NCBI GenBank assembly: GCA_045863295.1
Contig: BTWA01000009.1
Coordinates: 127,106-191,105, forward strand
Direction: 5' to 3'
Origin: Candidatus Hydrogenedentota bacterium
Lineage (GTDB): Bacteria; Hydrogenedentota; Hydrogenedentia; Hydrogenedentales; SLHB01
DNA: 64,000 nucleotides
In this document: in pieces, positions 22,329-58,174 of the stretch
Numbering within the stretch: position 1 is the first letter of the stretch
Layout: every line of letters starts with the position of its first letter
Program-made: the position numbers and the translations under genes
Notes under the pieces: model-generated
Seen by the model: the letters and a program-made list of their open reading frames with translations, nothing else
Told to the model about the DNA's origin: nothing
Databases searched by the model: none

Positions 22329-25300
22329 TCACGGTAAGTCGAGGTTTTTGGTTTTTCGCAATTGCATGCCGCCAAACACCAACGAAACGGCGGCTAACAC
22401 GAGAACGATCACACCACCGATTGCGGCGGGCATGCGTGCACCGGAAAGGTCGGGGGCAGGAATCGTGTCGTCCTGCCGCCTGCCCCACTGCAGAGTGGCG
22501 CTGTGAAAGAGGGCGATGGCGGGTTCGCTTGGCGAGTGACTGGCCGTCAAGGCAGTGCCCACGGGGTCGAGCAAACCCACAACCTGTTCCACCGGGTGCC
22601 ATCCGGCATGCGGACCGTCAGCAATGTACGCGTAGAGGCACAGCGTGCTCATGTCTTCTTCATTAGGCTGGTGGAGATTGGCAAGTATTGATACTGTAGC
22701 GGGTCCGCGAATCTCCGCAACGAAAGGTTCGCCGATCGCGCCGACAAGTACCGGTACATTCATTGCCTCCGAAACGTCGATTACTTCGAATGTAACCGCG
22801 ATCGACCTCACGAGTTCACCGTCGATTGTCCGTGCCGTTGCCCAAAGACGGATCGACTCGCCTTCCGCCCAATTCGACTTAGGAGTCACTGTAACCCATG
22901 CGTCGTTGCCCGCGGATAGCGGGACTTCCATCCACTTCACCTCGTATGGTGAATTCATGCTGACGTCAACGGACATTTGGACACTCTGCGTATCTAACGG
23001 CGTATCTGCGCGCAGGCGCACGGCCAGAGCGTCATCGGGCAATGCAGCGCGCACACCCGGAGCAATGGACCCTATTGGAAGCGCGACTTCGAATGCACGC
23101 GCGTCCAGACCCTTGGTTCCCGTGCCGCGGTGGCCGCTGTCGGGGTTGCTCCAATCGCTAACGGTGCTGCCCGCACCCAGTGCTTGAACCCAGTACACGT
23201 GCGAGTTGACCTCGAATTCGGTGGAGGGCGATCCGCCACATCCGCTCGCGGGGATGGTGATCTCGGTTGGCGCGGCAGCGGAAAAGTCATCGTGCTGCGT
23301 ACTCGCGACATCGGCCAACATCTGTGCCGCACCAGGATTGGCTAGGTTGGCGCGGTACACGCGGTATGCCGTTGCATTCGCTACGGCACTCCAGGTTACG
23401 CGCACCTTATCGGTAAAAGTGCCATCGCTGGCTTGCAGGTTTTGCGGTTTGTCCAAGGTCGCGCGGATGTAATCCCCTGCGGTGTTGGCTTTGTTTCCGC
23501 CCCCCACGGTTACGCGTTGCGGCAACGGGGTCACCCAGCCGGGAACTTGCGAGAATGACACAATGTAATCTTGAGGCTTTAGACCAGTGACTTCCACGCC
23601 GCTGTTGTTCCAAGCGCCGTCTTCAATGCGCCATTGCGCGCCCGCGGTCACGGCATCAGCCGGAGTGAGGGCGCATTGGATTGACCCCGGCCGCTGATAC
23701 AGCCCGCTGCGTTCGAGAACCTGCTCAGGCGCAAGGGTGATATTAATCGTATCCGGTGTGAACCATCCGGCTACGGTTTTAAACTGAATCTGGTGGGCTC
23801 CTTGCGGCACGTTCTCCAGTGTCACGCCCGAGCTTTGCCACAGCCCGCTGTCCAAGCGCCATTGCGCGCCCGCGTTGACGCAGTCCTGCGGGCCCAACGT
23901 TACTTTCACCTTGCCTACGTTGGATACCAGGGGAACTGTCTCTTGCTTGCTCTGGCCGGCCGCGAGGATCACGGGACCAGAATACGTTTGGAAATGCGGG
24001 GCCTGCACGGTGAGGGTGTAGCTTTGCCCTTCGAGACTAACCTCCCATGGTCCTCCGGGCGGCACGGCAATGTTGTTGTACGTGCTGTTGACATCGCCAT
24101 TGCCGGGAACCAGGTTGAGCGTCGCGCCGGGAACATATGCACCGTTGTACTGCACGTGCACTTTGAGATTGGAGTTCAACGTGGGCGCGGCTTCCCGCCA
24201 TACGCGTAACGAGTATCCCGTGTCGTCTCCGTATCCATCGCCCGCGCCTTTGGTGGAATAATAGACCTGCACGAGGTACCGGCCGTCCGCAGGCACAACG
24301 AAAGAGACGTAGGAAGAAAAGTCACCCAGACCCGCGTCGTCGTTGGAGGCGATGGGAGACTTCACGCTGACGGGTCCGAACACATCGATCTGGGTGTCGC
24401 ATCCCAGCCCGAGGTTTGACGTTTCAACCGTCACGATGGCCCCTGCGACCTCCTCAAACACGACGCAATCCACATCACCCTGGACGTGAAATGTGTGCCG
24501 TTGATCGGGGAAGCCGTTCACGGTGATCGGCTTGGCCAGTTCAAGGGTATCGTCCGCTTCGTACTCGTCGGGCGGCGTGCCTTCCGGAAAGGGCTTGTGC
24601 ACAACGGTCTTCGCGGGTGCCGAGGTGTTGTCGCGCAAGTCAACCGCCGTCACTGTAACGGCGTAGGTACCAAATGCGTCGAAGATATCAATGGCTGCTT
24701 CGTAGCGGCCCTGGGCAACCGAGAGCAACTCGATTTCCACCTGCGTCAGACCGTCGGGCTTGGTTATGAGACATACCACTTCCTTCAATGAAAGCAGTGC
24801 GCTAATCTCCACCCAGATGGTGGCTTGGATCTCTTCGGGAGTTAATGTCTGAGCGCTTGATATGGCGCCGATAAGCGGTTCATCTCCCGACAATTCAATG
24901 CCGGTGCCGATGCTGTATTGCTGCGCGAGCGCTCCATCGATCTTCGTGCTGAATACGCCGTCGCCGTTGTCGTCGAGTTCAGCCCGTTGTTGGGCAGCCG
25001 AGTTCATGGCCTTGGCGGCCGTGGAAAACGCTTCTCCTACCGTCGCGCCGAGTGCCGTTTCCACCCAGAAGTAGCGGCTGAACGAGACGACGCCGTTGTT
25101 TGCAAAGGTGGCCGGTTGGCCGGAACCCGCCGAACCGACCAGGATTCGTTTCTGGCCCGCGGTGGGCCGAAGTCCCGAGATAACGCTACCCGATCCCGAT
25201 GCATCGCACGCAACCGTGACAATGCCGGGTATGTCCTGGTGGAGCGCGTCGAGCCACCCGTCCAACACAGGCCAGGCGAGGAACTCGGCATCGCCGAGGT

Positions 25301-28300
25301 GAAACCCGTTGGTGGATCCTTGACCAACGAGACACAGCGTGAAATCGCGGGTGCTGGCCGAGGCCCACGTGTCGAGGGCGTCTTCCACACTCGCCAGCGT
25401 GGCGATACCGTCCACATCCGCCGTGATGGTCTGGCTCAGATAGCGAATGTCTTCCGGCGCATACCCCTGTATCTTCAACGAACGGTACACCCACGCCGCA
25501 AGCCATTCGTACGCGGGCCATTCGGGCGATGCATCGCTGCCCCCGGCCACGATGAGCACCTTGCGCGTCGGCGGCGCGCCGACGGTAACGGTGGTTTGGT
25601 AGGGCCCGGCGATCTGCCCTGCGCGGTTCGAAGCATATATATCCACTGTGTAGTCGCCCGGCGTGACAAAGTCTAGATAGGTGCCTTCCCATCGTCCGGT
25701 ACCATCGGGCAGCAATTCCACAGTAGCCAGTTCCGTCACCGCAATGGTCGACGATTGCTGCTCATAAGTTGGCGGCGTGATGACCGCCCATACACGGTTG
25801 ATGCCGGAATCGTCGGTGAAGTCGGCCCAGATAACGCCGTCATTCACACCGCTGATCGTTCCGTCGCCGCCCACCGTATCGATCACGGGATCCGTAATGC
25901 CCTGCGGTACGCCGCTGCCTAGAAATGCGCTCTGCAATGCTGTCAAATCGCCGGGTTCGTTCGGCGTGCCGTTGCCGTCCGCGTCGAGTTGCGCTTTCTG
26001 AAATGATATCTCGACGGCATCCCGCGCGCGGGAAAACGCGGGTCCCAACGGATCACCGTTTAGAATCTGCATCCAAAAATGATTCGAAAAGGATAGGGCG
26101 CCGCCACTTACAAAATAGGCCTGTTCGCCTGGAGTGGTGCTGGTCATAATCACACGGCCCGAATTGGCCAAATTCTGCAGCAAAGAACCTGACTCGCACG
26201 CGTCGTAGACCAGGTAAATCTTTCCGCTTATCTGCGATTGGAGTGCCGAGAGCCACGCCACGAGGTCTGTGTCAAAAAGGAGTTCATTCTCGTTAATACG
26301 GAACTTGTCCACACCACCATGATCGACCATGTACACGACCACATCATCTATCGGATCCGAAGTAGGGGACTGTCCCGCCCAAACCGTGAGCGCTTCCTGA
26401 ATATTGGCCCGCGTAGCTTCGGCGTCAACGTTGACCCCGTTGGCATCGGGCGAAAGTAGCCGTATGCTGTCGTGCGTGAATCCCCGATATAGCAACGCTT
26501 CGTGAGCGATGCGGGCGGTAGCAACGGTTGCATCCCATAGCCGGTTGCCTGCATAGGGTCCGCCGCCGGCGACAATTACCGCCTTGTTGTTAGCCACGGC
26601 CGCGACCGGTGAAAACTCTTGAACGCGTGCGGCTTCGGTATCCAGTACATACACGTGGCCAATGGCATCCACAATAACATCGCGTGGAAAGGAGAATTGT
26701 CCTGGATCAGTGCCGGTTTCTCCGATAGTCGTTATCAAAGTTCCGTCGGGAGCGTATTTGTAAAGTTTGTCCTCTCCGGTTCCCGTAATATAGAGATTCC
26801 CTGCGGCGTCCACGTCCATTCCCCGATAGCTGGCTCCGGTGTGAGGCGTAAACACGACACCTGAATCCACCCAGGCTGTACCGTCCCAGAGAAACTCTGC
26901 AATCGTGTCTGTGGAACCTATGTAGGCGATAGAGCCTGTGGGAGAGAGACCTATTGTCCTTGCAGTACCCGATGGTAAGGTCATTACCGGCGTCCCACTG
27001 ATGCTGCCGGATGAACCGTTGATGATATATACGCCGCCCGAGCCAACAAAATATACATCCCCGTTTGGATGCATCGCCCAGTCACGAGCGTCAACGGTGG
27101 GAATTGCTTCGAACTGTTCAACACCAGCCATATTGTACTTGGTCACGACTCCGCCACTCAGTCGGGGCAGAATCTCGGCGACGAAGACATTGCCCGCCGC
27201 GTCTACAAGGCACGCATCAGGTTCGCGATCTTCGAACGGATCTTCAGCGAACTCAGGGTATTGCTTCCATACCGAGAGGAACTGACCGGTGGGTGAGTAT
27301 TTGTTTATTCGCCGGTTGAGGTAGTCGGCAACAAAAAAATTCCCCGATGCATCTCTGGAGAATCCCCACGGAGCGGTAAGGTAACCGGGTGCAGAAGAAG
27401 CACTGCCGATGCTGCCTGTCAACAGCCCGTTCCGCGTAAACTTGCGAATGGAACTTGCCCCTTGGTCGACCAAGTAAACGTAGCCTCTCTTGTCGGCGGC
27501 TAATCCGAATATTTCGCCCGTGCCACCGGGGAGCGGGTAGTTCATGATCACTAATACATCATCTGCTGGCTGCGTCCACCGTACAATGTCACCATAATCG
27601 TTGCCCGCGTAAACTGTACCGCCTGGCCCCACGGCCATATATCCGGTAGGATTGCCATACGAAACTCCTCCCGGTCCAGTCCAATCAAAATGAAATGGAA
27701 GTGCTTCACCCGAGGGCGAGTATTTGCTAGTGCCGTCGATGAAGAGATAGCCGTCCTCGTCGATAACCATATCCTTGTGTGCAATCACATTGGGAAGATG
27801 TCCCAGGTATCCACTCTCCAGATCAAACAAGTATGTTCCGGTGGCTGACCCCACATAGATCAATCCAGATTTGGCCACAGAGATGCACGTCGGCAAGAAT
27901 GCTGGAGTGGTGCTGTCGGAGCCGTCGGTGAGTATGGCGCCAAGCTGTTCGCCCTTTTGATTGCACGCCCCCACGGCTGGAAACGGCGTTGTGGGGTTTG
28001 TTCCGTAGATCATAAAAAAGTTGCCGCGCGTGTCGAGCGCAAGATCTATTACTTTAAATCCCGCCGAACCAGGGACACCCGGCTGTCCCAACGCATCATC
28101 GAAAGGTGCGGTGACATACGTCGAACCAAGATACCGGCCATTTTCGTTAAACTTTACAATCCAATAATTGTCGGAGACGTAAAGATTGCCCAAGTCATCC
28201 ACTTGCACCGAAACCGGACTGGAGAAGCCGTACGACACATTACTGGAGGGCCACAGACGTTCGAACCGGTAATCGTCAGCATTGGCCCGACCGCTGCTCG

Positions 28301-28364
28301 ATAGCAAAACAAACGCCGTCCCCAGTAAGCACAAGCGCACATCCAGCCTGCAACCGCACCCCAT
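22329..28364 (-). CDS. ~2000-aa surface protein: signal peptide, NHL propellers, two C13/caspase-fold domains, PPC/PEGA/FN3-like domains, C-terminal TM anchor
   Basis: NHL repeats (GQFSFPRDVIVDAIGHVYVLD); VYMVDHGG...YDACESG dyad; GAQWR repeats; PQNLQASDGTFTDKVRVTW; hydrophobic C-terminus then RKTK. Start placed at MGCGCRL by signal-peptide character. Confidence 0.8.
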   Translation of the reverse strand: MGCGCRLDVRLCLLGTAFVLLSSSGRANADDYRFERLWPSSNVSYGFSSPVSVQVDDLGNLYVSDNYWIVKFNENGRYLGSTYVTAPFDDALGQPGVPGSAGFKVIDLALDTRGNFFMIYGTNPTTPFPAVGACNQKGEQLGAILTDGSDSTTPAFLPTCISVAKSGLIYVGSATGTYLFDLESGYLGHLPNVIAHKDMVIDEDGYLFIDGTSKYSPSGEALPFHFDWTGPGGVSYGNPTGYMAVGPGGTVYAGNDYGDIVRWTQPADDVLVIMNYPLPGGTGEIFGLAADKRGYVYLVDQGASSIRKFTRNGLLTGSIGSASSAPGYLTAPWGFSRDASGNFFVADYLNRRINKYSPTGQFLSVWKQYPEFAEDPFEDREPDACLVDAAGNVFVAEILPRLSGGVVTKYNMAGVEQFEAIPTVDARDWAMHPNGDVYFVGSGGVYIINGSSGSISGTPVMTLPSGTARTIGLSPTGSIAYIGSTDTIAEFLWDGTAWVDSGVVFTPHTGASYRGMDVDAAGNLYITGTGEDKLYKYAPDGTLITTIGETGTDPGQFSFPRDVIVDAIGHVYVLDTEAARVQEFSPVAAVANNKAVIVAGGGPYAGNRLWDATVATARIAHEALLYRGFTHDSIRLLSPDANGVNVDAEATRANIQEALTVWAGQSPTSDPIDDVVVYMVDHGGVDKFRINENELLFDTDLVAWLSALQSQISGKIYLVYDACESGSLLQNLANSGRVIMTSTTPGEQAYFVSGGALSFSNHFWMQILNGDPLGPAFSRARDAVEISFQKAQLDADGNGTPNEPGDLTALQSAFLGSGVPQGITDPVIDTVGGDGTISGVNDGVIWADFTDDSGINRVWAVITPPTYEQQSSTIAVTELATVELLPDGTGRWEGTYLDFVTPGDYTVDIYASNRAGQIAGPYQTTVTVGAPPTRKVLIVAGGSDASPEWPAYEWLAAWVYRSLKIQGYAPEDIRYLSQTITADVDGIATLASVEDALDTWASASTRDFTLCLVGQGSTNGFHLGDAEFLAWPVLDGWLDALHQDIPGIVTVACDASGSGSVISGLRPTAGQKRILVGSAGSGQPATFANNGVVSFSRYFWVETALGATVGEAFSTAAKAMNSAAQQRAELDDNGDGVFSTKIDGALAQQYSIGTGIELSGDEPLIGAISSAQTLTPEEIQATIWVEISALLSLKEVVCLITKPDGLTQVEIELLSVAQGRYEAAIDIFDAFGTYAVTVTAVDLRDNTSAPAKTVVHKPFPEGTPPDEYEADDTLELAKPITVNGFPDQRHTFHVQGDVDCVVFEEVAGAIVTVETSNLGLGCDTQIDVFGPVSVKSPIASNDDAGLGDFSSYVSFVVPADGRYLVQVYYSTKGAGDGYGDDTGYSLRVWREAAPTLNSNLKVHVQYNGAYVPGATLNLVPGNGDVNSTYNNIAVPPGGPWEVSLEGQSYTLTVQAPHFQTYSGPVILAAGQSKQETVPLVSNVGKVKVTLGPQDCVNAGAQWRLDSGLWQSSGVTLENVPQGAHQIQFKTVAGWFTPDTINITLAPEQVLERSGLYQRPGSIQCALTPADAVTAGAQWRIEDGAWNNSGVEVTGLKPQDYIVSFSQVPGWVTPLPQRVTVGGGNKANTAGDYIRATLDKPQNLQASDGTFTDKVRVTWSAVANATAYRVYRANLANPGAAQMLADVASTQHDDFSAAAPTEITIPASGCGGSPSTEFEVNSHVYWVQALGAGSTVSDWSNPDSGHRGTGTKGLDARAFEVALPIGSIAPGVRAALPDDALAVRLRADTPLDTQSVQMSVDVSMNSPYEVKWMEVPLSAGNDAWVTVTPKSNWAEGESIRLWATARTIDGELVRSIAVTFEVIDVSEAMNVPVLVGAIGEPFVAEIRGPATVSILANLHQPNEEDMSTLCLYAYIADGPHAGWHPVEQVVGLLDPVGTALTASHSPSEPAIALFHSATLQWGRRQDDTIPAPDLSGARMPAAIGGVIVLVLAAVSLVFGGMQLRKTKNLDLP

Positions 28365-28674
28365 AACCCAAACCCTTCCACCCACGACGCGCCGCTGAAA
28401 CCCCGGTTTGAAATACATGCCCCGTCCCGGAAGAAACGGAGCCGATTCAGATAGTATTACGCCATATTGGGATAGTTGCTTCCAACCTCTATAGTATACA
28501 CCATGTGGGTCGGCATGTAAGCGTAAGTCACTTCCTTTTGCGGCATGAGCTTTTGATACGCTTTTTTTCGCGGGGCTCGTGTCGACAAGTGTGAATCTTC
28601 CATGCATTTGAATAGGACCGGGGAAGATCGGGAAACCGTGATGTGCAGGGTGTTGGCAGTCGCAACGCTTATTT

Positions 28675-28706
28675 AAAAAACAAGCGCCTCCACGGCGGAG
28701 GCGCTT
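28675..28706 (-). terminator. Intrinsic terminator
   Basis: AAGCGCCTCC-GCCGT-GGAGGCGCTT then GTTTTTT on the minus strand. Confidence 0.85.
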
Positions 28707-28835
28707 TGTATGCAAATTAATGGGGAAAGCAGCGTAGCAATCTCTACCTCTGTCGACACAGCCCGATAAAATGTCATCGGGGAGGAGTCCATGCGGGACT
28801 ATCGCTTAGGCAGCCCTCGCTGCGCTGCTTCCTCT
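28675..28835 (-). ncRNA. Putative structured ncRNA or leader (unassigned family)
   Basis: Promoter upstream; 5' GGAAGCAGCGCAGCGA pairs with TTGCTACGCTGCTTTC enclosing small hairpins; terminator follows. Confidence 0.55.
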
Positions 28836-37542: not shown

Positions 37543-37807
37543 CAATGCTTTCCCGCCGTGTGTGTTTGTGGGTGGCCCGTAACGCTTCAAGCAAATTCGA
37601 ATTCCGGCATCGTCCATCATGGGCAACTGGACTGCACGGAAGCGCGATGTTGAAGGTGCAGGCCCGTGGCGATGTCGTAACCAAGTACTGTCCGGCATTG
37701 TGGCATGTGTCGGCCTGTGGGGATTGCCGTGCTTTCGTGCGACGCTCTCCCAGGTCAGGATGCGCGGTTCGGCATTCCCACCGGACCCGCATGGAACAGG
37801 AGAAGAC

Positions 37808-38416
37808 ATGGCTTCCATCATTCCCGCGCTGTTGAACGTATGCCAGAACGAATGGGAATTTTTCGGCTGCTCCATTATGAATCTCGACGGATCGGTTCAG
37901 ATCGGGAAGCGGGAGTACGACGAAGGCGCTTGGCAACGCGTGGGGGACTATTGGGATTTTCTCGGCGGCCGTTACGCAGGATTAAACGGAAAAGATCGGG
38001 GCGTCGCCTGGTCCGCCGCTTTCATTTCCTGGTGCATGCATGAAGCTGGCGCCGGCGACCGCTTTCCCTACTCGCCCAGCCACAACAAATACATTAACAA
38101 GGCCATCAAGAATTCCGACAACAACGTGCAAGACGCTCCTTTCTCAGGCAAACGTCTCCCCGGATATGCGTTCAAGCCCGGCGACCTGATTGGTTATTGG
38201 CGCGGCGATACGGAAGTGACCTACGACACCGCGCGGCAAATCGGATGGTACGAGAGCCATACAGACGTCATAGTTTCCGTGGAACCCGGCGTTGCCTATT
38301 GCATCGGCGGCAACGTGGAACATTCCGTCACCCGCCGCGCTGTCCAACTCGGCCCCAACGGCGATCTGACAGATACATCCAAGAGTTGGTTTGTGGCAAT
38401 ACAAAACAATATGTGA
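37808..38416 (+). CDS. DUF2272-like (CHAP/NlpC-P60-like) protein
   Basis: RVGDYW, AWSAAFISWCMHEAG, PSHNKYI, GDLI, SHTDVI, IGGNVEHSV; AGGAG RBS. Confidence 0.8.
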   Translation: MASIIPALLNVCQNEWEFFGCSIMNLDGSVQIGKREYDEGAWQRVGDYWDFLGGRYAGLNGKDRGVAWSAAFISWCMHEAGAGDRFPYSPSHNKYINKAIKNSDNNVQDAPFSGKRLPGYAFKPGDLIGYWRGDTEVTYDTARQIGWYESHTDVIVSVEPGVAYCIGGNVEHSVTRRAVQLGPNGDLTDTSKSWFVAIQNNM

Positions 38417-38461
38417 ATTCGAACGTCCCGATTTGCAGGCGTTGCATGGGCACAAGGCTGG

Positions 38462-40210
38462 ATGAATATGAAGCGAAGCGCGGTCATTATCGGAGTGGAT
38501 AAAGTACACGGCATGGCGCTTCTGCATGATGCGGCAGCGGGAGCCATGGCGTTTGCAGACTGGGCAAGCAGCCAGGCTATTGACGTGGACCTGTTGACCG
38601 ACTCGGGTGGGTCAAATGTTACGGTCGCTCAAGTAAAGTCGACGGTAAAAAGAATCGTCGATTCGCAAACCTATGACCAACTCATCATCTATTTTGCGGG
38701 TCACGGAATCTGTAAGCAGCCCGGAACGGAATTGTGGTTGCTTTCGGGAGCCACCGAAGACTCGAATGAAGCCATAAATTTGTCGGGCTCTTCCTGGCAG
38801 GCTCGAAATGCGCGTATCAATCACATTGTATTCATTTCGGACGCGTGCCGGACTCCGGCCAGCAATCCACTTCTTAGCCAAATATTTGGATCCATCATCT
38901 TTCCGAATGCTGTTGCACTTCCCCAACGTCCCGCGCTGGACTTTTTCTACGCGACACTGCCTTGGCAGCCAGCGATTGAAGTGCCTGAGCCGGAAGCTGC
39001 ACAACAATACCGGGCTGTATTTACAAGTGATTTACTCAAAGGGTTGCGAGGCGAAATTGTGTATGTAGTATTGAAAGAGGACAATGGCCCGACAGGCAAC
39101 GCCGTTTGGAAAGTGACAAGCGACTCGGTGAAACCGTTTCTTATAGAGCACGTGCCACTTACGGCCTCGGGCTACGACATCAGGCTGCAACAATTTCCCG
39201 AAATCATCGTTGAATCACGTCCACCAACATATCTTTCGTTATTCGATGCCGCTCCCGCCGCCGATCCTGCATTTGATGTGCCCGAAGCCGGGAGCCCATG
39301 TCCTTCTGACATCATGTGCAGCCTGCAGGCCGAGACATTCTTTCATCAATCGATGCAGCCTTCTCTCTACAGCCCAGAGATCCGGGATGTGGCCATGCGC
39401 TCCAAAATGGCCGCGCGAATTTCTGAAATTGAACGTGCCAAGGGACGGGAGTCCTTTGAGACGCGCACCGGGTTTTCCGTGGTGGGATCCCGTATTGCGC
39501 GGGCCGTCGTTTCCCGGTCGTCATGGGATATGTTTGAGGAAAACGGCGCTCAACACATTCGCGTGCATAATGAGAATCTCGAGGACCAACCTCGCTCAGC
39601 GCTCATTCAGATTGAATTTGGCAAGGTTGTTCCCCTTGCCGTATTGCCGGGTTTCATTGGTACCATTGTAGCCGATGGCCCTCGCGTTCTCTCGATCAGT
39701 TATTTACCCAGCCGCGGATCTTCCCGTTATCCACAGCACAATCCGGATCTATTGGATGACGTACGCCGGCGAAATGCATCTGCGTCCGTGGCTGCCGAAT
39801 CGGGCCATTTCCGGTTTGAAACGGAGGTACTTGCCATACAGGCGGCAGACATGCTGCGAGAATCCAAAGGTATTGATCCCATGTTGGGTTTGTACTCCGC
39901 GTATGCCTATGCGCAGGCGGGCAAATTTGAAGAAGTACATTCCGTCTTCGAGATTATGCATCGTGAACCGGAGCCGGTTTTGTATGACGTTGCCATGCTC
40001 GCGGGTAAGTTGTTGCCTGGATTGGGAGAAAGCCCCAGGGCCGCGCCTTTCTGCCCGATGCTGGCGCAAGGCTGGTGGTTGATAGAAGCGACCGGAACAG
40101 AATTGAACGATTGGGCGCAGCATGCACGCAGCCTGCTATTGCCTGGACTGTGGACCACATTGGACGCGGAACGAGTGGCAGATTTGTGGACTTCCGTTGA
40201 AAGGGATTAA
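38462..40210 (+). CDS. Caspase-like (C14) peptidase with uncharacterised C-terminal region
   Basis: SAVIIGVD, IYFAGHG (His), FISDACR (Cys), VFTSDLLKGLRG, QQFPE. Confidence 0.88.
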   Translation: MNMKRSAVIIGVDKVHGMALLHDAAAGAMAFADWASSQAIDVDLLTDSGGSNVTVAQVKSTVKRIVDSQTYDQLIIYFAGHGICKQPGTELWLLSGATEDSNEAINLSGSSWQARNARINHIVFISDACRTPASNPLLSQIFGSIIFPNAVALPQRPALDFFYATLPWQPAIEVPEPEAAQQYRAVFTSDLLKGLRGEIVYVVLKEDNGPTGNAVWKVTSDSVKPFLIEHVPLTASGYDIRLQQFPEIIVESRPPTYLSLFDAAPAADPAFDVPEAGSPCPSDIMCSLQAETFFHQSMQPSLYSPEIRDVAMRSKMAARISEIERAKGRESFETRTGFSVVGSRIARAVVSRSSWDMFEENGAQHIRVHNENLEDQPRSALIQIEFGKVVPLAVLPGFIGTIVADGPRVLSISYLPSRGSSRYPQHNPDLLDDVRRRNASASVAAESGHFRFETEVLAIQAADMLRESKGIDPMLGLYSAYAYAQAGKFEEVHSVFEIMHREPEPVLYDVAMLAGKLLPGLGESPRAAPFCPMLAQGWWLIEATGTELNDWAQHARSLLLPGLWTTLDAERVADLWTSVERD

Positions 40211-40213
40211 TTC

Positions 40214-41083
40214 ATGCGACTGGTGTTGATACATGGGCGCGCACAAGAGGGTAAGAGCAGCGACGAACTGAAGGAAGAGTGGTTGGTCGCCCTCCGGCGA
40301 GGACTCTTAGACAATCAACTTCAGCTACCGGCCGATACGGACGTTCAGGTACCGTTCTACGGGAATAGACTTGATGAACTTATTCGTCAGCTGGATGCGC
40401 CTCTGGTTGAGGATGCGGTGATACGTGGCGACGCCAAGGACAGTATTGCTCCAGAGTTTCGAGGCGAATTGCTGGAAGAGCTTGCCAAGAATGCACAATT
40501 GTCGGACGAGGAAATAAAGGCGGAGTTTACCGGAGAAATTCAGGAGCGCGGGCCGGCAAATTGGGAATGGGTTCATGCGATTCTCAAAGCGCTCGATAAA
40601 AAGACAGATTTCGGCGACAATGTTATCGAGACGTTTACTCGAGATGTTTACGTTTATCTGACCAACGCCGTAGTGCGACGTGAAATTGACGGTATCGTGG
40701 CAGCTGCGCTGCCGGAACAAGGGCCGTGTGTTGTTGTGGGCCATTCGTTGGGAAGCGTTGTCGGATACAATGTGTTGCGCAGGGCGGCAAATTCAATTCA
40801 GGTCAAAAAATACGTGACTGTAGGTTCACCGCTTGGATTGAAGTCTATCAGAAAAAGAGTTGAGTCTCCCATAAAAATGCCGGAATGCGTATCGGAATGG
40901 TTTAATGCCTATGACGATGGCGACATTGTGGCATTGCTTCCACTGGACGAAAACCACTTCAATGTAGATCCCCCCATTGTGAACAAAGGCGACGTCAACA
41001 ACCATACCGATAACCAACACAGCATTGCCGGGTACTTGGACGACCCGGAGGTTGCAAAGCAAATCCAAACCGCACTCACGTAA
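40214..41083 (+). CDS. Alpha/beta-hydrolase (lipase-like)
   Basis: LIHGR, VGHSLGS nucleophile elbow, TVGSPLG, NAYDDGDIV, HSIAGYL; starts 3 bp after the caspase stop. Confidence 0.88.
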   Translation: MRLVLIHGRAQEGKSSDELKEEWLVALRRGLLDNQLQLPADTDVQVPFYGNRLDELIRQLDAPLVEDAVIRGDAKDSIAPEFRGELLEELAKNAQLSDEEIKAEFTGEIQERGPANWEWVHAILKALDKKTDFGDNVIETFTRDVYVYLTNAVVRREIDGIVAAALPEQGPCVVVGHSLGSVVGYNVLRRAANSIQVKKYVTVGSPLGLKSIRKRVESPIKMPECVSEWFNAYDDGDIVALLPLDENHFNVDPPIVNKGDVNNHTDNQHSIAGYLDDPEVAKQIQTALT

Positions 41084-56650: not shown

Positions 56651-58174
56651 CTACTTCTTAGCCGAGTTGCGTTGGTTGGACGAAACCGGCCGTGCTCGAT
56701 CGGCGGACCACGTCCGCAGTTCCGCGATGCGTTCGCGCATGGTGACGGAAAGCGGGACCGTCTCCCCGATGCTCCTCGCGATGTCCCGAGTATCCAGTTC
56801 GCGATGGTCGAAGAAACTGTCGTGCATGGCGGAGACAATGGCCTGTTCCAGTTCCGCTCCGCTGAAGCCATCGCTTAACTCTGCCAGTTCGTCGAGGCCA
56901 AAGTTAGCTGAATTCCGGTTCTTCTTCGCGAGGTGTATCGCGAGGATTTCTTTTCGTTCTTCGGCCATGGGCAGATCGACGAAGAAGATTTCGTCGAGGC
57001 GGCCTTTACGCAAGAGTTCGGGCGGCAATCCCTGAACGTTGTTTGCTGTGGCAACCACGAATACAGGAGCGGTCTTTTCCTGTATCCACGTGAGAAAGGT
57101 GCCCACCACGCGCGCCGTGGTACCGGCATCCGTGCTGCTTGAACCTTCCACGCCGGAGAACGCCTTTTCGATTTCGTCGATCCACAACACAATCGGCGCA
57201 AGGGATTCCGCGAGCGTCACCGCTTTGCGCATGTTCAATTCGCTGCTGCCGATATAGCCCTGGAATATCCGGCTCATGTCCATCCGCAATAGGGGCAACC
57301 TCCAGGACGAGGCGATGGTCTTTGCGATCAGACTCTTGCCGCAACCCTGCACACCCATCAGTAGAATGCCCTTGGGCTGAGGGAGGCCGTATTTGCGTGC
57401 TTCCGGGCTGAACGCGCGTATGCGTTTTCCCAGCCAGTCCTTCAGCAAGTCCATACCGCCTACGGCCGACAGATCCTCAGAAACGTCGTAGTATTCCAGC
57501 ACGCCGGACTTGCGGATGACTTGGCGCTTCTCACGCGCCACGGCATCGACATCGTCCGCATCCAGCGACTGATCGCTCACAATCGCCATGGCGAAGGCGT
57601 TTTCCGCTTCAGTGAGGGTGAGACCTTGCGCCGCCTTGATAATGGCGTCGCGGTCCGCGTCGGTCAGGCGCACCTGAAACTTTCGCTGGCTGCCGCCGAT
57701 GGATTTGTTCAGCAATTCATTGAGTTCATCGTAGCCGGGCAACGGCAAATCGAGTATGGACAGCGACTTCTCCAACTCCGACGGCACGGTCAGGTTGGGG
57801 GAGACGAGAATAATCGTTTTACGGGTGCGACGGAGTGCCTGACCGAGATCGCGCAATTGGCGCACGATCTCCGGAGATTCGAGATAGGTGTGAAAGTCCT
57901 TGAGAATGTATATGGCCGGAATATTGGTTTGCAGGACCTCATTCAACACGGCAAGCGGTTCACGCGATCGTTTGCCTGCTTGCGGCGGTTCCTGCGACGC
58001 AGTCATGCATCGCAGACCGTCGGTAATGCTCCACTCGAACAAAGACTTCTGCTGCGTCTGGGCGACTTCCATAATCATCCTGCGGGCACGATCTTCTTCC
58101 CATGTCACGATATAGATCAGGGAATGGCGCGCTCGGATGAGCAGATCCAGCTCTCTGAGAAAGTCGGTCTTCAT
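56651..58174 (-). CDS. Ycf46-like AAA+ ATPase
   Basis: Degenerate N-terminal AAA (ILKDFH); GVQGCGKS, WIDEIEK, LPPELLRKGRLDE. Confidence 0.9.
   Translation of the reverse strand: MKTDFLRELDLLIRARHSLIYIVTWEEDRARRMIMEVAQTQQKSLFEWSITDGLRCMTASQEPPQAGKRSREPLAVLNEVLQTNIPAIYILKDFHTYLESPEIVRQLRDLGQALRRTRKTIILVSPNLTVPSELEKSLSILDLPLPGYDELNELLNKSIGGSQRKFQVRLTDADRDAIIKAAQGLTLTEAENAFAMAIVSDQSLDADDVDAVAREKRQVIRKSGVLEYYDVSEDLSAVGGMDLLKDWLGKRIRAFSPEARKYGLPQPKGILLMGVQGCGKSLIAKTIASSWRLPLLRMDMSRIFQGYIGSSELNMRKAVTLAESLAPIVLWIDEIEKAFSGVEGSSSTDAGTTARVVGTFLTWIQEKTAPVFVVATANNVQGLPPELLRKGRLDEIFFVDLPMAEERKEILAIHLAKKNRNSANFGLDELAELSDGFSGAELEQAIVSAMHDSFFDHRELDTRDIARSIGETVPLSVTMRERIAELRTWSADRARPVSSNQRNSAKK

Follow-up and report, generated by a model that had tools for sequence, protein, structure and literature searches.

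The caspase-family protease and the alpha/beta-hydrolase encoded side by side in the window (the whole stretch of 64,000 nucleotides analysed here) very probably form, judging from their sequences, a two-gene protease-effector module in which the hydrolase is activated by cleavage and whose likeliest role is defence by abortive infection. The module itself is no discovery. Since the available texts show the pairing described in 2020 (Kaur et al. 2020, eLife, PMC7159879) and the mechanism in 2025 (Evans et al. 2025, bioRxiv, PMC12642450), the novelty that the earlier note had hoped for is removed, although PADLOC-DB v2.0.0 has no name for the pair. Nonetheless, the raw sequence alone had led that note independently to a protease-gated death module characterised only in late 2025, and the rediscovery supports its logic. 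What our analysis adds is the strict conservation of the two-gene form across at least seven phyla, the frequent use of Lys in place of Arg before the cut, the higher conservation of the hydrolase than of the caspase, and a confidently modelled caspase C-terminal domain without known relatives.

The locus at 37808-41083 holds three genes on the same strand, for a DUF2272 protein, a C14 caspase and an alpha/beta-hydrolase, with the following features:

37808..38416, + strand: DUF2272 gene (PF10030), CHAP-related, 202 aa, a neighbour outside the caspase/hydrolase module
38462..40210, + strand: gene of the caspase-family (C14) protease, 582 aa, putative sensor/protease half of the pair (from the ORF, Pfam and homologues)
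38462..39250, + strand: caspase domain, residues ~1-263 (from His81/Cys129 invariance; pLDDT mostly 80-96)
38702-38704, + strand: codon of catalytic His81, in the FAGHG motif
38846-38848, + strand: codon of catalytic Cys129, in the SDACR motif
39251..39433, + strand: variable linker, residues ~264-324 (poor alignment, variable length; pLDDT 47-67)
39434..40207, + strand: conserved C-terminal domain, residues 325-582, candidate regulatory/sensor domain (model pLDDT 91.9, pTM 0.91)
40214..41083, + strand: gene of the putative alpha/beta-hydrolase zymogen, 289 aa, presumed latent effector (from pairing and homology)
40424..40429, + strand: predicted cleavage site 1, Arg71/Gly72, equivalent of LcHydrolase Arg73/Gly
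40547..40552, + strand: predicted cleavage site 2, Arg112/Gly113, equivalent of LcHydrolase Arg117/Gly
40745-40747, 40922-40924 and 41018-41020, + strand: codons of the hydrolase triad, Ser178, Asp237 and His269, each invariant in 74/74 aligned hydrolases

The ORF calls confirm the co-oriented arrangement described in the earlier note, with 45 bp between the DUF2272 and caspase genes and 3 bp between the caspase and hydrolase genes. Its claim of an insertion among unrelated genes also holds, as the genes on either side have metabolic or envelope functions (DUF6526, SDR, WS/DGAT and RecG upstream; Tat-metallophosphoesterase, aminotransferase, OmpA and TPR downstream). The lower GC content of the pair, until now a visual impression, could be quantified: 0.534 for the caspase and 0.507 for the hydrolase gene versus 0.59 in both flanking genes, with a GC3 of 0.55 and 0.54, respectively, versus 0.63-0.73 in 12 neighbouring genes. 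No caspase match was found among 60 relatives, and seven full-length family matches lie on plasmids, including large rhizobial ones. Taken together, the absence from relatives, the low GC3 and the plasmid matches indicate an accessory, mobile character of the pair, which was probably acquired horizontally and shows a patchy, HGT-like distribution; a search of 50,697 phage records gave no match. Borders of the insertion could not be defined by synteny from the nearest relative sharing the flanking metallophosphoesterase (59% identity), which within 18 kb has no other gene, of 15 tested, in common with the window. A promoter scan upstream yielded no promoter-like site, and the two terminator-like sites, fewer than in shuffled sequences, both lie within genes. 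Flanking repeats are limited to short, chance-like ones, Rfam gave no matches, and inspection by eye revealed no evident signal peptide in any of the three proteins.

The hydrolase gene directly follows that of the caspase at 76 of the 80 related genome loci; homologues of these two proteins thus co-occur, as the earlier note had expected. The paired loci belong to at least seven phyla, including Pseudomonadota, Acidobacteriota, Bacteroidota, Planctomycetota, Actinomycetota and Gemmatimonadota. Three of the four exceptions (L028, L047 and L052) end inside or just after the caspase gene, and the fourth (L068) is a truncated caspase remnant. The stop and start codons of the two genes mostly overlap, the median gap being -4 nt over 74 loci with start codons picked by a heuristic made for this analysis. 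When 878 greedy ORFs from the 80 loci and the window were clustered all against all, no third recurring gene emerged. ORF clusters 2 and 3 are antisense artefacts within the hydrolase gene.

Residues 5-180 of the caspase match Peptidase_C14 in Pfam (PF00656, E 1.3e-5, 25.4 bits with a cut-off of 21.4), and at E<=1e-3 there are 344 full-length homologues of about 560-650 aa, alignable end to end. The His/Cys dyad reported from the FAGHG and DACR motifs is indeed present, His81 and Cys129 being invariant in 20/20 and 48/48 aligned homologues in two alignments. In Foldseek, the top-ranking structures were MALT1 paracaspase, caspases and metacaspase 9 (E 5e-7 to 1e-5). With MALT1 and metacaspases the window caspase shares an Asp two residues N-terminal of the catalytic Cys (Asp127), a feature tied to Arg specificity, and a predicted cut after a basic residue. 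However, identity is 11-15%, query-normalised TM-scores are only about 0.3 and long MALT1 alignments have an rmsd >22 A. The likeness to MALT1 is therefore restricted to the caspase fold and, as far as the model goes, gives no indication of an Ig3-like arrangement in the window caspase.

For the hydrolase, Pfam returned only sub-threshold matches (Hydrolase_4, Lipase_3, Abhydrolase_6 and PGAP1; E 0.003-0.08), and 1511 homologues were collected at E<=1e-3. The Ser/Asp/His-type motifs described in the earlier note are intact: Ser178, within GHSLG, as well as Asp237 and His269 do not vary in the 74 aligned hydrolases. By inference from this alignment, the triad Asp would be Asp237 (74/74) rather than Asp234 (73/74). 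Both basic/Gly sites fall in a surface insert. Site 1 has R or K in 72/74 and Gly in 67/74 of the aligned hydrolases, and site 2 has R or K in 72/74 and Gly in all 74. The available text of Evans et al. describes R/G sites, whereas in our alignment of 74 homologues Lys instead of Arg precedes the predicted cut 16 times at site 1 and 30 times at site 2. The only PDB match of the hydrolase profile was Group XV phospholipase A2 in the region of the nucleophile elbow (E 0.009), and a match this weak does not allow a substrate to be named.

A pair that is probably homologous has been studied in Lysobacter capsici AZ78. According to the available part of the preprint (Evans et al. 2025, PMC12642450), LcCaspase (594 aa, Cys129) cuts LcHydrolase (296 aa) at Arg73 and Arg117, both R/G, into fragments of 8.1, 4.7 and 19.8 kDa, the cleaved fragments are toxic, and LcCaspase cuts its substrate in vitro with no trigger other than 1 mM ATP. 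That part gives no substrate for LcHydrolase, which did not degrade nucleic acids, and a literature search brought up no other mechanism paper on the caspase/alpha-beta-hydrolase module. As far as this text goes, the window pair is similar in many respects. It consists of two genes with the caspase first, the products have comparable lengths (582/289 aa), the catalytic Cys is residue 129 in both caspases, and the basic/Gly sites are at 71 and 112 compared with 73 and 117. The predicted fragments of the window hydrolase have 8.1, 4.6 and 19.5 kDa, and both hydrolases have the GHSLG nucleophile elbow and a C-terminal NQH...GYLDD motif. The 400 residues of LcCaspase printed in the preprint run into the same beta-sandwich region. 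This likeness combines a by-eye comparison (many motifs, same site positions) with a computed bridge through L077, a pair encoded by a Lysobacteraceae MAG and itself judged by eye to be close to the Lc pair. The window hydrolase is 44% identical to that of L077 (E 3e-81), and the caspase is 39% identical in the caspase domain (E 1e-34) and 25% in the C-terminal domain (E 2e-12). The sub-branch of the window pair is thus not that of the Lc pair. Of the two proteins, the hydrolase is the better conserved.

The strict gene pairing and the probable homology to the Lc pair, including both cleavage sites, support the proposal of the earlier note that the caspase cleaves and activates a latent hydrolase, and by analogy the window copy would behave like the studied Lc pair. 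The hydrolase would be produced as an inactive zymogen, which the active caspase may cut after the basic residues preceding Gly, that is, between Arg71 and Gly72 and between Arg112 and Gly113. The double cut would free an inhibitory middle piece of about 4.6 kDa, and the N-terminal and C-terminal pieces (8.1 and 19.5 kDa) would then assemble into an active Ser178/Asp237/His269 hydrolase. Such an enzyme would kill the cell or arrest it, the likeliest purpose being defence by abortive infection with phage as the presumed trigger. The lipase-like activity and phage sensing that had been part of the original proposal fare less well, as the preprint, in its available part, neither names a substrate nor gives a phage trigger for this module. 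Prediction of the caspase/hydrolase complex gave a score of 0.53 compared with 0.00 for the best control, which is weak support: the mark applied was reached by 116/157 solved complexes and 2/215 mismatches, and at scores <=0.60 there were only 18/157 solved complexes plus both mismatches that passed. Between the runs at least 68% of contacts agreed, and the partner had a pLDDT of at least 79.

Other systems share either the pairing or the logic of activation. In the available text of Kaur et al. (2020, PMC7159879), caspase-superfamily peptidases are always accompanied by a neighbouring alpha/beta-hydrolase, the two are predicted to act jointly, and the pairing is placed in vWA-MoxR (VMAP) and GTPase-centric conflict systems. 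The comparison with these is by gene pairing and not by hydrolase sequence family. Their caspase is fused to or located beside VMAP/STAND-type NTPase components, whereas the window pair stands alone, with no recurring NTPase gene and with a caspase that has its own C-terminal domain. In gasdermin, MBL nuclease, Pepco, EACC1 and Craspase-Csx30 systems, as described in the texts available, an adjacent protease likewise frees a latent toxic protein by site-specific cleavage; the window effector, an alpha/beta-hydrolase, differs from the pore formers, nucleases and sigma-factor regulators used there. Searches of the neighbours with Pfam, NCBIfam and PADLOC found no gasdermin, EACC1 or CRISPR components. 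The EACC1-associated type of caspase was considered and rejected (NCBIfam caspase_w_EACC1, NF047832, 30.7 bits versus a cut-off of 140). In PADLOC-DB v2.0.0, no named system was matched; the caspase hits only the generic PDLC02987 (E 9e-7, 26 bits, N-terminal 140 residues), and the hydrolase and DUF2272 have no matches.

A genuine caspase-activated hydrolase module might also serve a purpose other than phage defence, either as a switch for stress-related or developmental death or remodelling, or as a weapon or addiction module of a mobile element. We consider this rather unlikely. It would agree with the setting of the window pair, which lies in no recognisable defence island (0 of the 44 other ORFs match PADLOC at E<=1e-30), and with the occurrence of the family on large rhizobial plasmids. 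It would also agree with the preprint, whose available text raises stress responses as a role for protease-effector modules and reports neither phage protection nor a phage trigger for the alpha/beta-hydrolase module (Evans et al. 2025, PMC12642450). However, the same text describes the sister modules MBL, Pepco and EACC1 as phage-triggered, the placement of the pairing by Kaur et al. is within conflict systems, and the patchy distribution resembles that of a horizontally transferred trait. Defence genes are, moreover, frequent beside the pair in other genomes, where 14/197 nearest-neighbour proteins at 11/56 loci match PADLOC models at E<=1e-30, including IetA/IetS, BrxL, type I REase, PDC-S41, PDC-M60 and Dsr2-like proteins. 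Several of the IetAS-adjacent loci come from related Burkholderiales and some of the PADLOC models are generic. The scan covered 197 of 243 ORFs, the remaining 46 belonging to L067-L081, and one ORF (L053:8024-8659) was dropped because it overlaps the hydrolase. With the window as a small control from one genome, the enrichment is not significant (one-sided Fisher p = 0.054). The enrichment near defence islands that the earlier note had suggested looking for is only suggestive for the family elsewhere.

The reading of the locus as a caspase-hydrolase module leaves out the third gene, which the earlier note had cast as another effector or as a caspase substrate. DUF2272 is an unrelated neighbour present by chance: it is found in 0/80 caspase-carrying loci, no third gene recurs around the pair, and its codon composition is host-like (GC3 0.66 versus 0.54-0.55 in the pair). 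The conserved trio expected earlier is accordingly reduced to the caspase and hydrolase clusters. The protein matches PF10030 (E 8e-32), and its start is taken as the ATG behind GGAG, giving 202 aa, within a longer ORF that begins at 37619. Some members of the DUF2272 family also match the CHAP family PF05257. A three-gene system in which this CHAP-like, cell-wall-hydrolase-type protein would be a second effector or a caspase substrate could draw on that match and on the sporadic occurrence of DUF2272, which, like that of the pair, is low among relatives (1/60). The gene also precedes that of the caspase on the same strand, and the 45 bp between them hold no terminator-like site, so co-transcription is possible in this genome. 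Yet its absence from every related locus, its host-like composition and the lack of a PADLOC match, along with the two-protein make-up of the Lc system in the available text of the preprint, leave such a system very improbable. Even less credible, and already contradicted, is the functional independence of the two genes as a housekeeping metacaspase-like protease and an ordinary esterase, which the generic weak matches obtained from Pfam alone would allow but which is at odds with same-orientation adjacency in many phyla, with the retention of both basic/Gly sites in the surface insert and with the experimental cleavage reported in the available text for the Lc pair.

The preferred module of caspase and hydrolase has one further element, the C-terminal part of the caspase. 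The earlier note had seen about 300 aa of unrecognised sequence there, and about 260 aa indeed have no Pfam family, with no consistent family among 41 members. Foldseek returned no match at E<=1e-3. A profile search of the PDB found no sequence relative, only marginal IpaH rows (E 0.0014-0.015) of which no stretch passed alone, and the best Z of the wide VIA-align search was 5.1, below the level the tool treats as meaningful, with TPR-type rows at about 4. In the model, a beta-sandwich of eight strands (~337-416) leads into a helical TPR-like bundle (~428-580). The domain probably serves to gate the protease or to oligomerise it. It is tempting to go further and see in it a previously undescribed sensor that recognises the trigger (a phage protein, an envelope or a stress cue) and gates protease assembly, a possibility that we hold only tentatively. 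If this is the case, the two-gene form, widespread as it is, would unite sensor, protease and effector in one self-contained system with no need for a STAND/NTPase partner. A much less likely extension is that co-transcription with the cytoplasmic CHAP-like DUF2272 would link the pair to muropeptide turnover in this particular genome.

The three genes that the earlier note had proposed as a candidate protease-activated effector system are co-oriented, and their ORF coordinates agree with the gaps it had reported, 45 bp between the DUF2272 and caspase genes and 3 bp between the caspase and hydrolase genes:

37808-38416, + strand: DUF2272 gene, 202 aa, with an ATG start after GGAG
38462-40210, + strand: caspase gene, 582 aa
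40214-41083, + strand: hydrolase gene, 289 aa

A longer alternative DUF2272 ORF, starting at 37619, is also present. In Pfam, the DUF2272 protein corresponds to PF10030 (E 8e-32) and caspase residues 5-180 to PF00656 Peptidase_C14 (E 1.3e-5, above the gathering score); the hydrolase has only weak alpha/beta-hydrolase and lipase matches. The catalytic residues of both enzymes are intact, as had been read from the sequence: the caspase dyad is His81 (FAGHG) and Cys129 (SDACR), and the hydrolase nucleophile Ser178, from GHSLG, is invariant together with Asp237 and His269 in 74/74 aligned homologues. The flanking genes are indeed unrelated to the trio, both upstream (DUF6526, SDR, WS/DGAT, an NHL-repeat protein, GDSL lipase and RecG) and downstream (a Tat-signal metallophosphoesterase, an aminotransferase, OmpA and a TPR protein). 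Also upstream, a single 2128-aa ORF (22332-28715, - strand) has no PADLOC match at E<=1e-10. The AT-richness noticed earlier can now be expressed in numbers. The GC content is 0.534 for the caspase and 0.507 for the hydrolase versus 0.59 in the genes on both sides, and GC3 is 0.55 and 0.54, respectively, versus 0.63-0.73 in 12 neighbouring genes. GC3 of the DUF2272 gene (0.66) is host-like.

At E<=1e-3, 344 homologues match the full-length caspase; their lengths lie at about 560-650 aa, and they can be aligned end to end. Scanning one genome per prokaryotic species, we confirmed 109 places and kept 80 of these loci for comparison. In 76 of the 80, a homologue of the window hydrolase lies directly downstream of the caspase on the same strand. 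As for the four exceptions, L028, L047 and L052 stop inside or right after the caspase, and L068 carries a truncated caspase remnant. In L068 (6001-6393, a Methylococcales MAG) the caspase is recognisable for the first ~133 residues only, similarity is lost from the frame past SDACR, and there is no hydrolase downstream; here the module has decayed to a remnant. The median distance from the caspase stop to the hydrolase start, with start codons picked heuristically, is -4 nt (74 loci), that is, stop and start overlap. The hydrolase is more conserved than the caspase, with 59% versus 46% identity to the best genome match. Of the proposed trio, the caspase and hydrolase do co-occur, whereas DUF2272 is found in none of the 80 caspase loci, and clustering of all 878 ORFs in these loci revealed no third recurring gene. 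It is worth adding that in a subset of loci (L014:2834-5941, L026:1981-5766, L039:2468-6007 and L048:2597-6001) a 1036-1261-aa protein with C-terminal TPR repeats directly precedes the caspase. The one in L014 also matches CHAT/SAVED-CHAT protease models (E 7e-14), and these large proteins may represent either another protease system or an additional sensor with an accessory role.

The suggestion that DUF2272 serves as a second effector or substrate is therefore not borne out, given its absence from 80/80 caspase loci. It is a CHAP-related protein located upstream of the pair by happenstance here. Most of its 341 homologues (E<=1e-5) stand alone and are about 200 aa long. Some homologues co-match CHAP (PF05257) or bear peptidoglycan-binding domains; a few have signal peptides, and the ~200-aa subgroup to which the window protein belongs lacks the signal peptide present in some more distant members. 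Two residues are invariant in 15/15 aligned members:

38012-38014, + strand: codon of DUF2272 Ser69 (WSAAF)
38258-38260, + strand: codon of DUF2272 His151

Ser69 may occupy the position of the catalytic Cys in CHAP/NlpC enzymes; if the two are equivalent, DUF2272 would be a Ser/His variant.

The caspase-hydrolase system itself is not novel, and the window pair adds another member to it. That an alpha/beta-hydrolase gene always adjoins such caspases was already stated by Kaur et al. 2020 (PMC7159879). In Evans et al. (bioRxiv November 2025, PMC12642450), the alpha/beta-hydrolase module is placed among the most abundant protease-effector modules, and the pair of Lysobacter capsici AZ78 is studied. 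There, LcCaspase (594 aa, catalytic Cys129) is described as cutting LcHydrolase (296 aa) at Arg73 and Arg117, each followed by Gly, into fragments of 8.1, 4.7 and 19.8 kDa; nucleic acids were not degraded by the cleaved LcHydrolase, and no substrate for it was found in that study. Our literature search located no other paper on the mechanism of the module. PADLOC v2.0.0, which we ran as had been proposed, does not name it: the caspase matches a generic caspase model only and the hydrolase has no matches. The window caspase also scores far under the cut-off of the NCBIfam EACC1-type caspase model.

The window and Lysobacter proteins are alike in size, have Cys129 at the same position, and share site positions and many motifs, as judged by eye on printed sequences. 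The pair of L077 (a Lysobacteraceae MAG) is visibly close to the Lysobacter capsici pair, and the window hydrolase is 44% identical to that of L077 (E 3e-81); for the caspases, identity is 39% in the caspase domain (E 1e-34) and 25% in the C-terminal domain (E 2e-12). The predicted sites in the window hydrolase are Arg71/Gly72 and Arg112/Gly113, and cleavage there would yield fragments of 8.1, 4.6 and 19.5 kDa. Among 74 aligned homologues, site 1 has Arg in 56 and Lys in 16, with Gly next in 67, and site 2 has Arg in 42 and Lys in 30, with Gly next in all 74. The family motif is therefore a basic residue followed by Gly, not strictly Arg-Gly. An additional Arg-Gly at residues 83-84 of the window hydrolase is not conserved. 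Taken together, the pairing, the cleavage-site residues and the Lysobacter precedent support the caspase-hydrolase half of the mechanism proposed earlier, but not the half that involved DUF2272.

The caspase model (pLDDT 80.9, pTM 0.81) has an N-terminal domain matching MALT1, caspases and metacaspase 9. In MALT1 and metacaspases, an Asp two residues before the catalytic Cys is tied to Arg specificity. Asp127, in the same position relative to Cys129, is invariant, which fits cleavage after a basic residue. Residues 325-582, modelled separately with 41 homologues (pLDDT 91.9, pTM 0.91), form a beta-sandwich of eight strands with a helical bundle after it. This C-terminal region, already flagged as unrecognised, has no Pfam family, no PDB sequence relative and nothing at E<=1e-3 in Foldseek; VIA-align gave weak TPR-like rows only (best Z 5.1). 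We infer a regulatory or sensor function for it. Complex prediction, another proposed check, was run on alignments of the hydrolase and of the caspase domain (residues 1-265), the latter in two copies. The score of 0.53 versus 0.00 for the best control weakly supports caspase-hydrolase binding, the mark used being reached by 116/157 solved complexes and 2/215 mismatches, and at 0.60 or under by 18/157 solved complexes and both passing mismatches. Contact agreement between runs was at least 68%, and partner pLDDT at least 79.

The pair is accessory: among 60 genomes from its own family and order there is no caspase match, and DUF2272 is found in 1/60. The borders of the insertion are undefinable because the nearest relative shares no synteny. 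Full-length relatives are also plasmid-borne, in 7 records (Sinorhizobium, Ensifer, Bradyrhizobium, Hymenobacter), where the annotation reads simply 'caspase family protein' and, for the next gene, 'hypothetical protein'. Among 50,697 phage records there is no relative.

Enrichment near defence genes, also among the checks proposed earlier, is suggestive only, and it concerns other genomes; in the window itself there is no defence island around the pair. For each locus, at most four of the closest ORFs were compared with PADLOC (110 proteins in 31 loci and 87 in 25 loci), covering the first 197 of the 243 neighbour ORFs listed. At E<=1e-30, 14/197 proteins in 11/56 loci matched, versus 0/44 other window ORFs (one-sided Fisher p = 0.054, with some loci mutually related). 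The matches were PDC-S41, IetS, IetA (three loci), BrxL, NERD-helicase, a UvrD-type helicase, PDC-M60B/C, a type I REase, a type II methylase and a Dsr2-like protein. In a Hymenobacter sp. IS2118 contig (L019:598-3633, - strand), the pair adjoins a 1011-aa caspase-helicase fusion, in which the caspase model of PADLOC covers the N-terminal ~190 residues (E 4e-19), while the remainder matches Hachiman HamB-type DEAD-box helicase models (E 1.1e-30). In the window, the C-terminal half of a 507-aa ORF (56654-58174, - strand) matches PADLOC IetA (AAA+ ATPase) models (E 4e-25); with no IetS-like subtilase next to it, this ORF may encode a generic AAA+ ATPase. In four other genomes (L017, L030, L036 and L046), the caspase-hydrolase pair directly adjoins an IetA/IetS pair.
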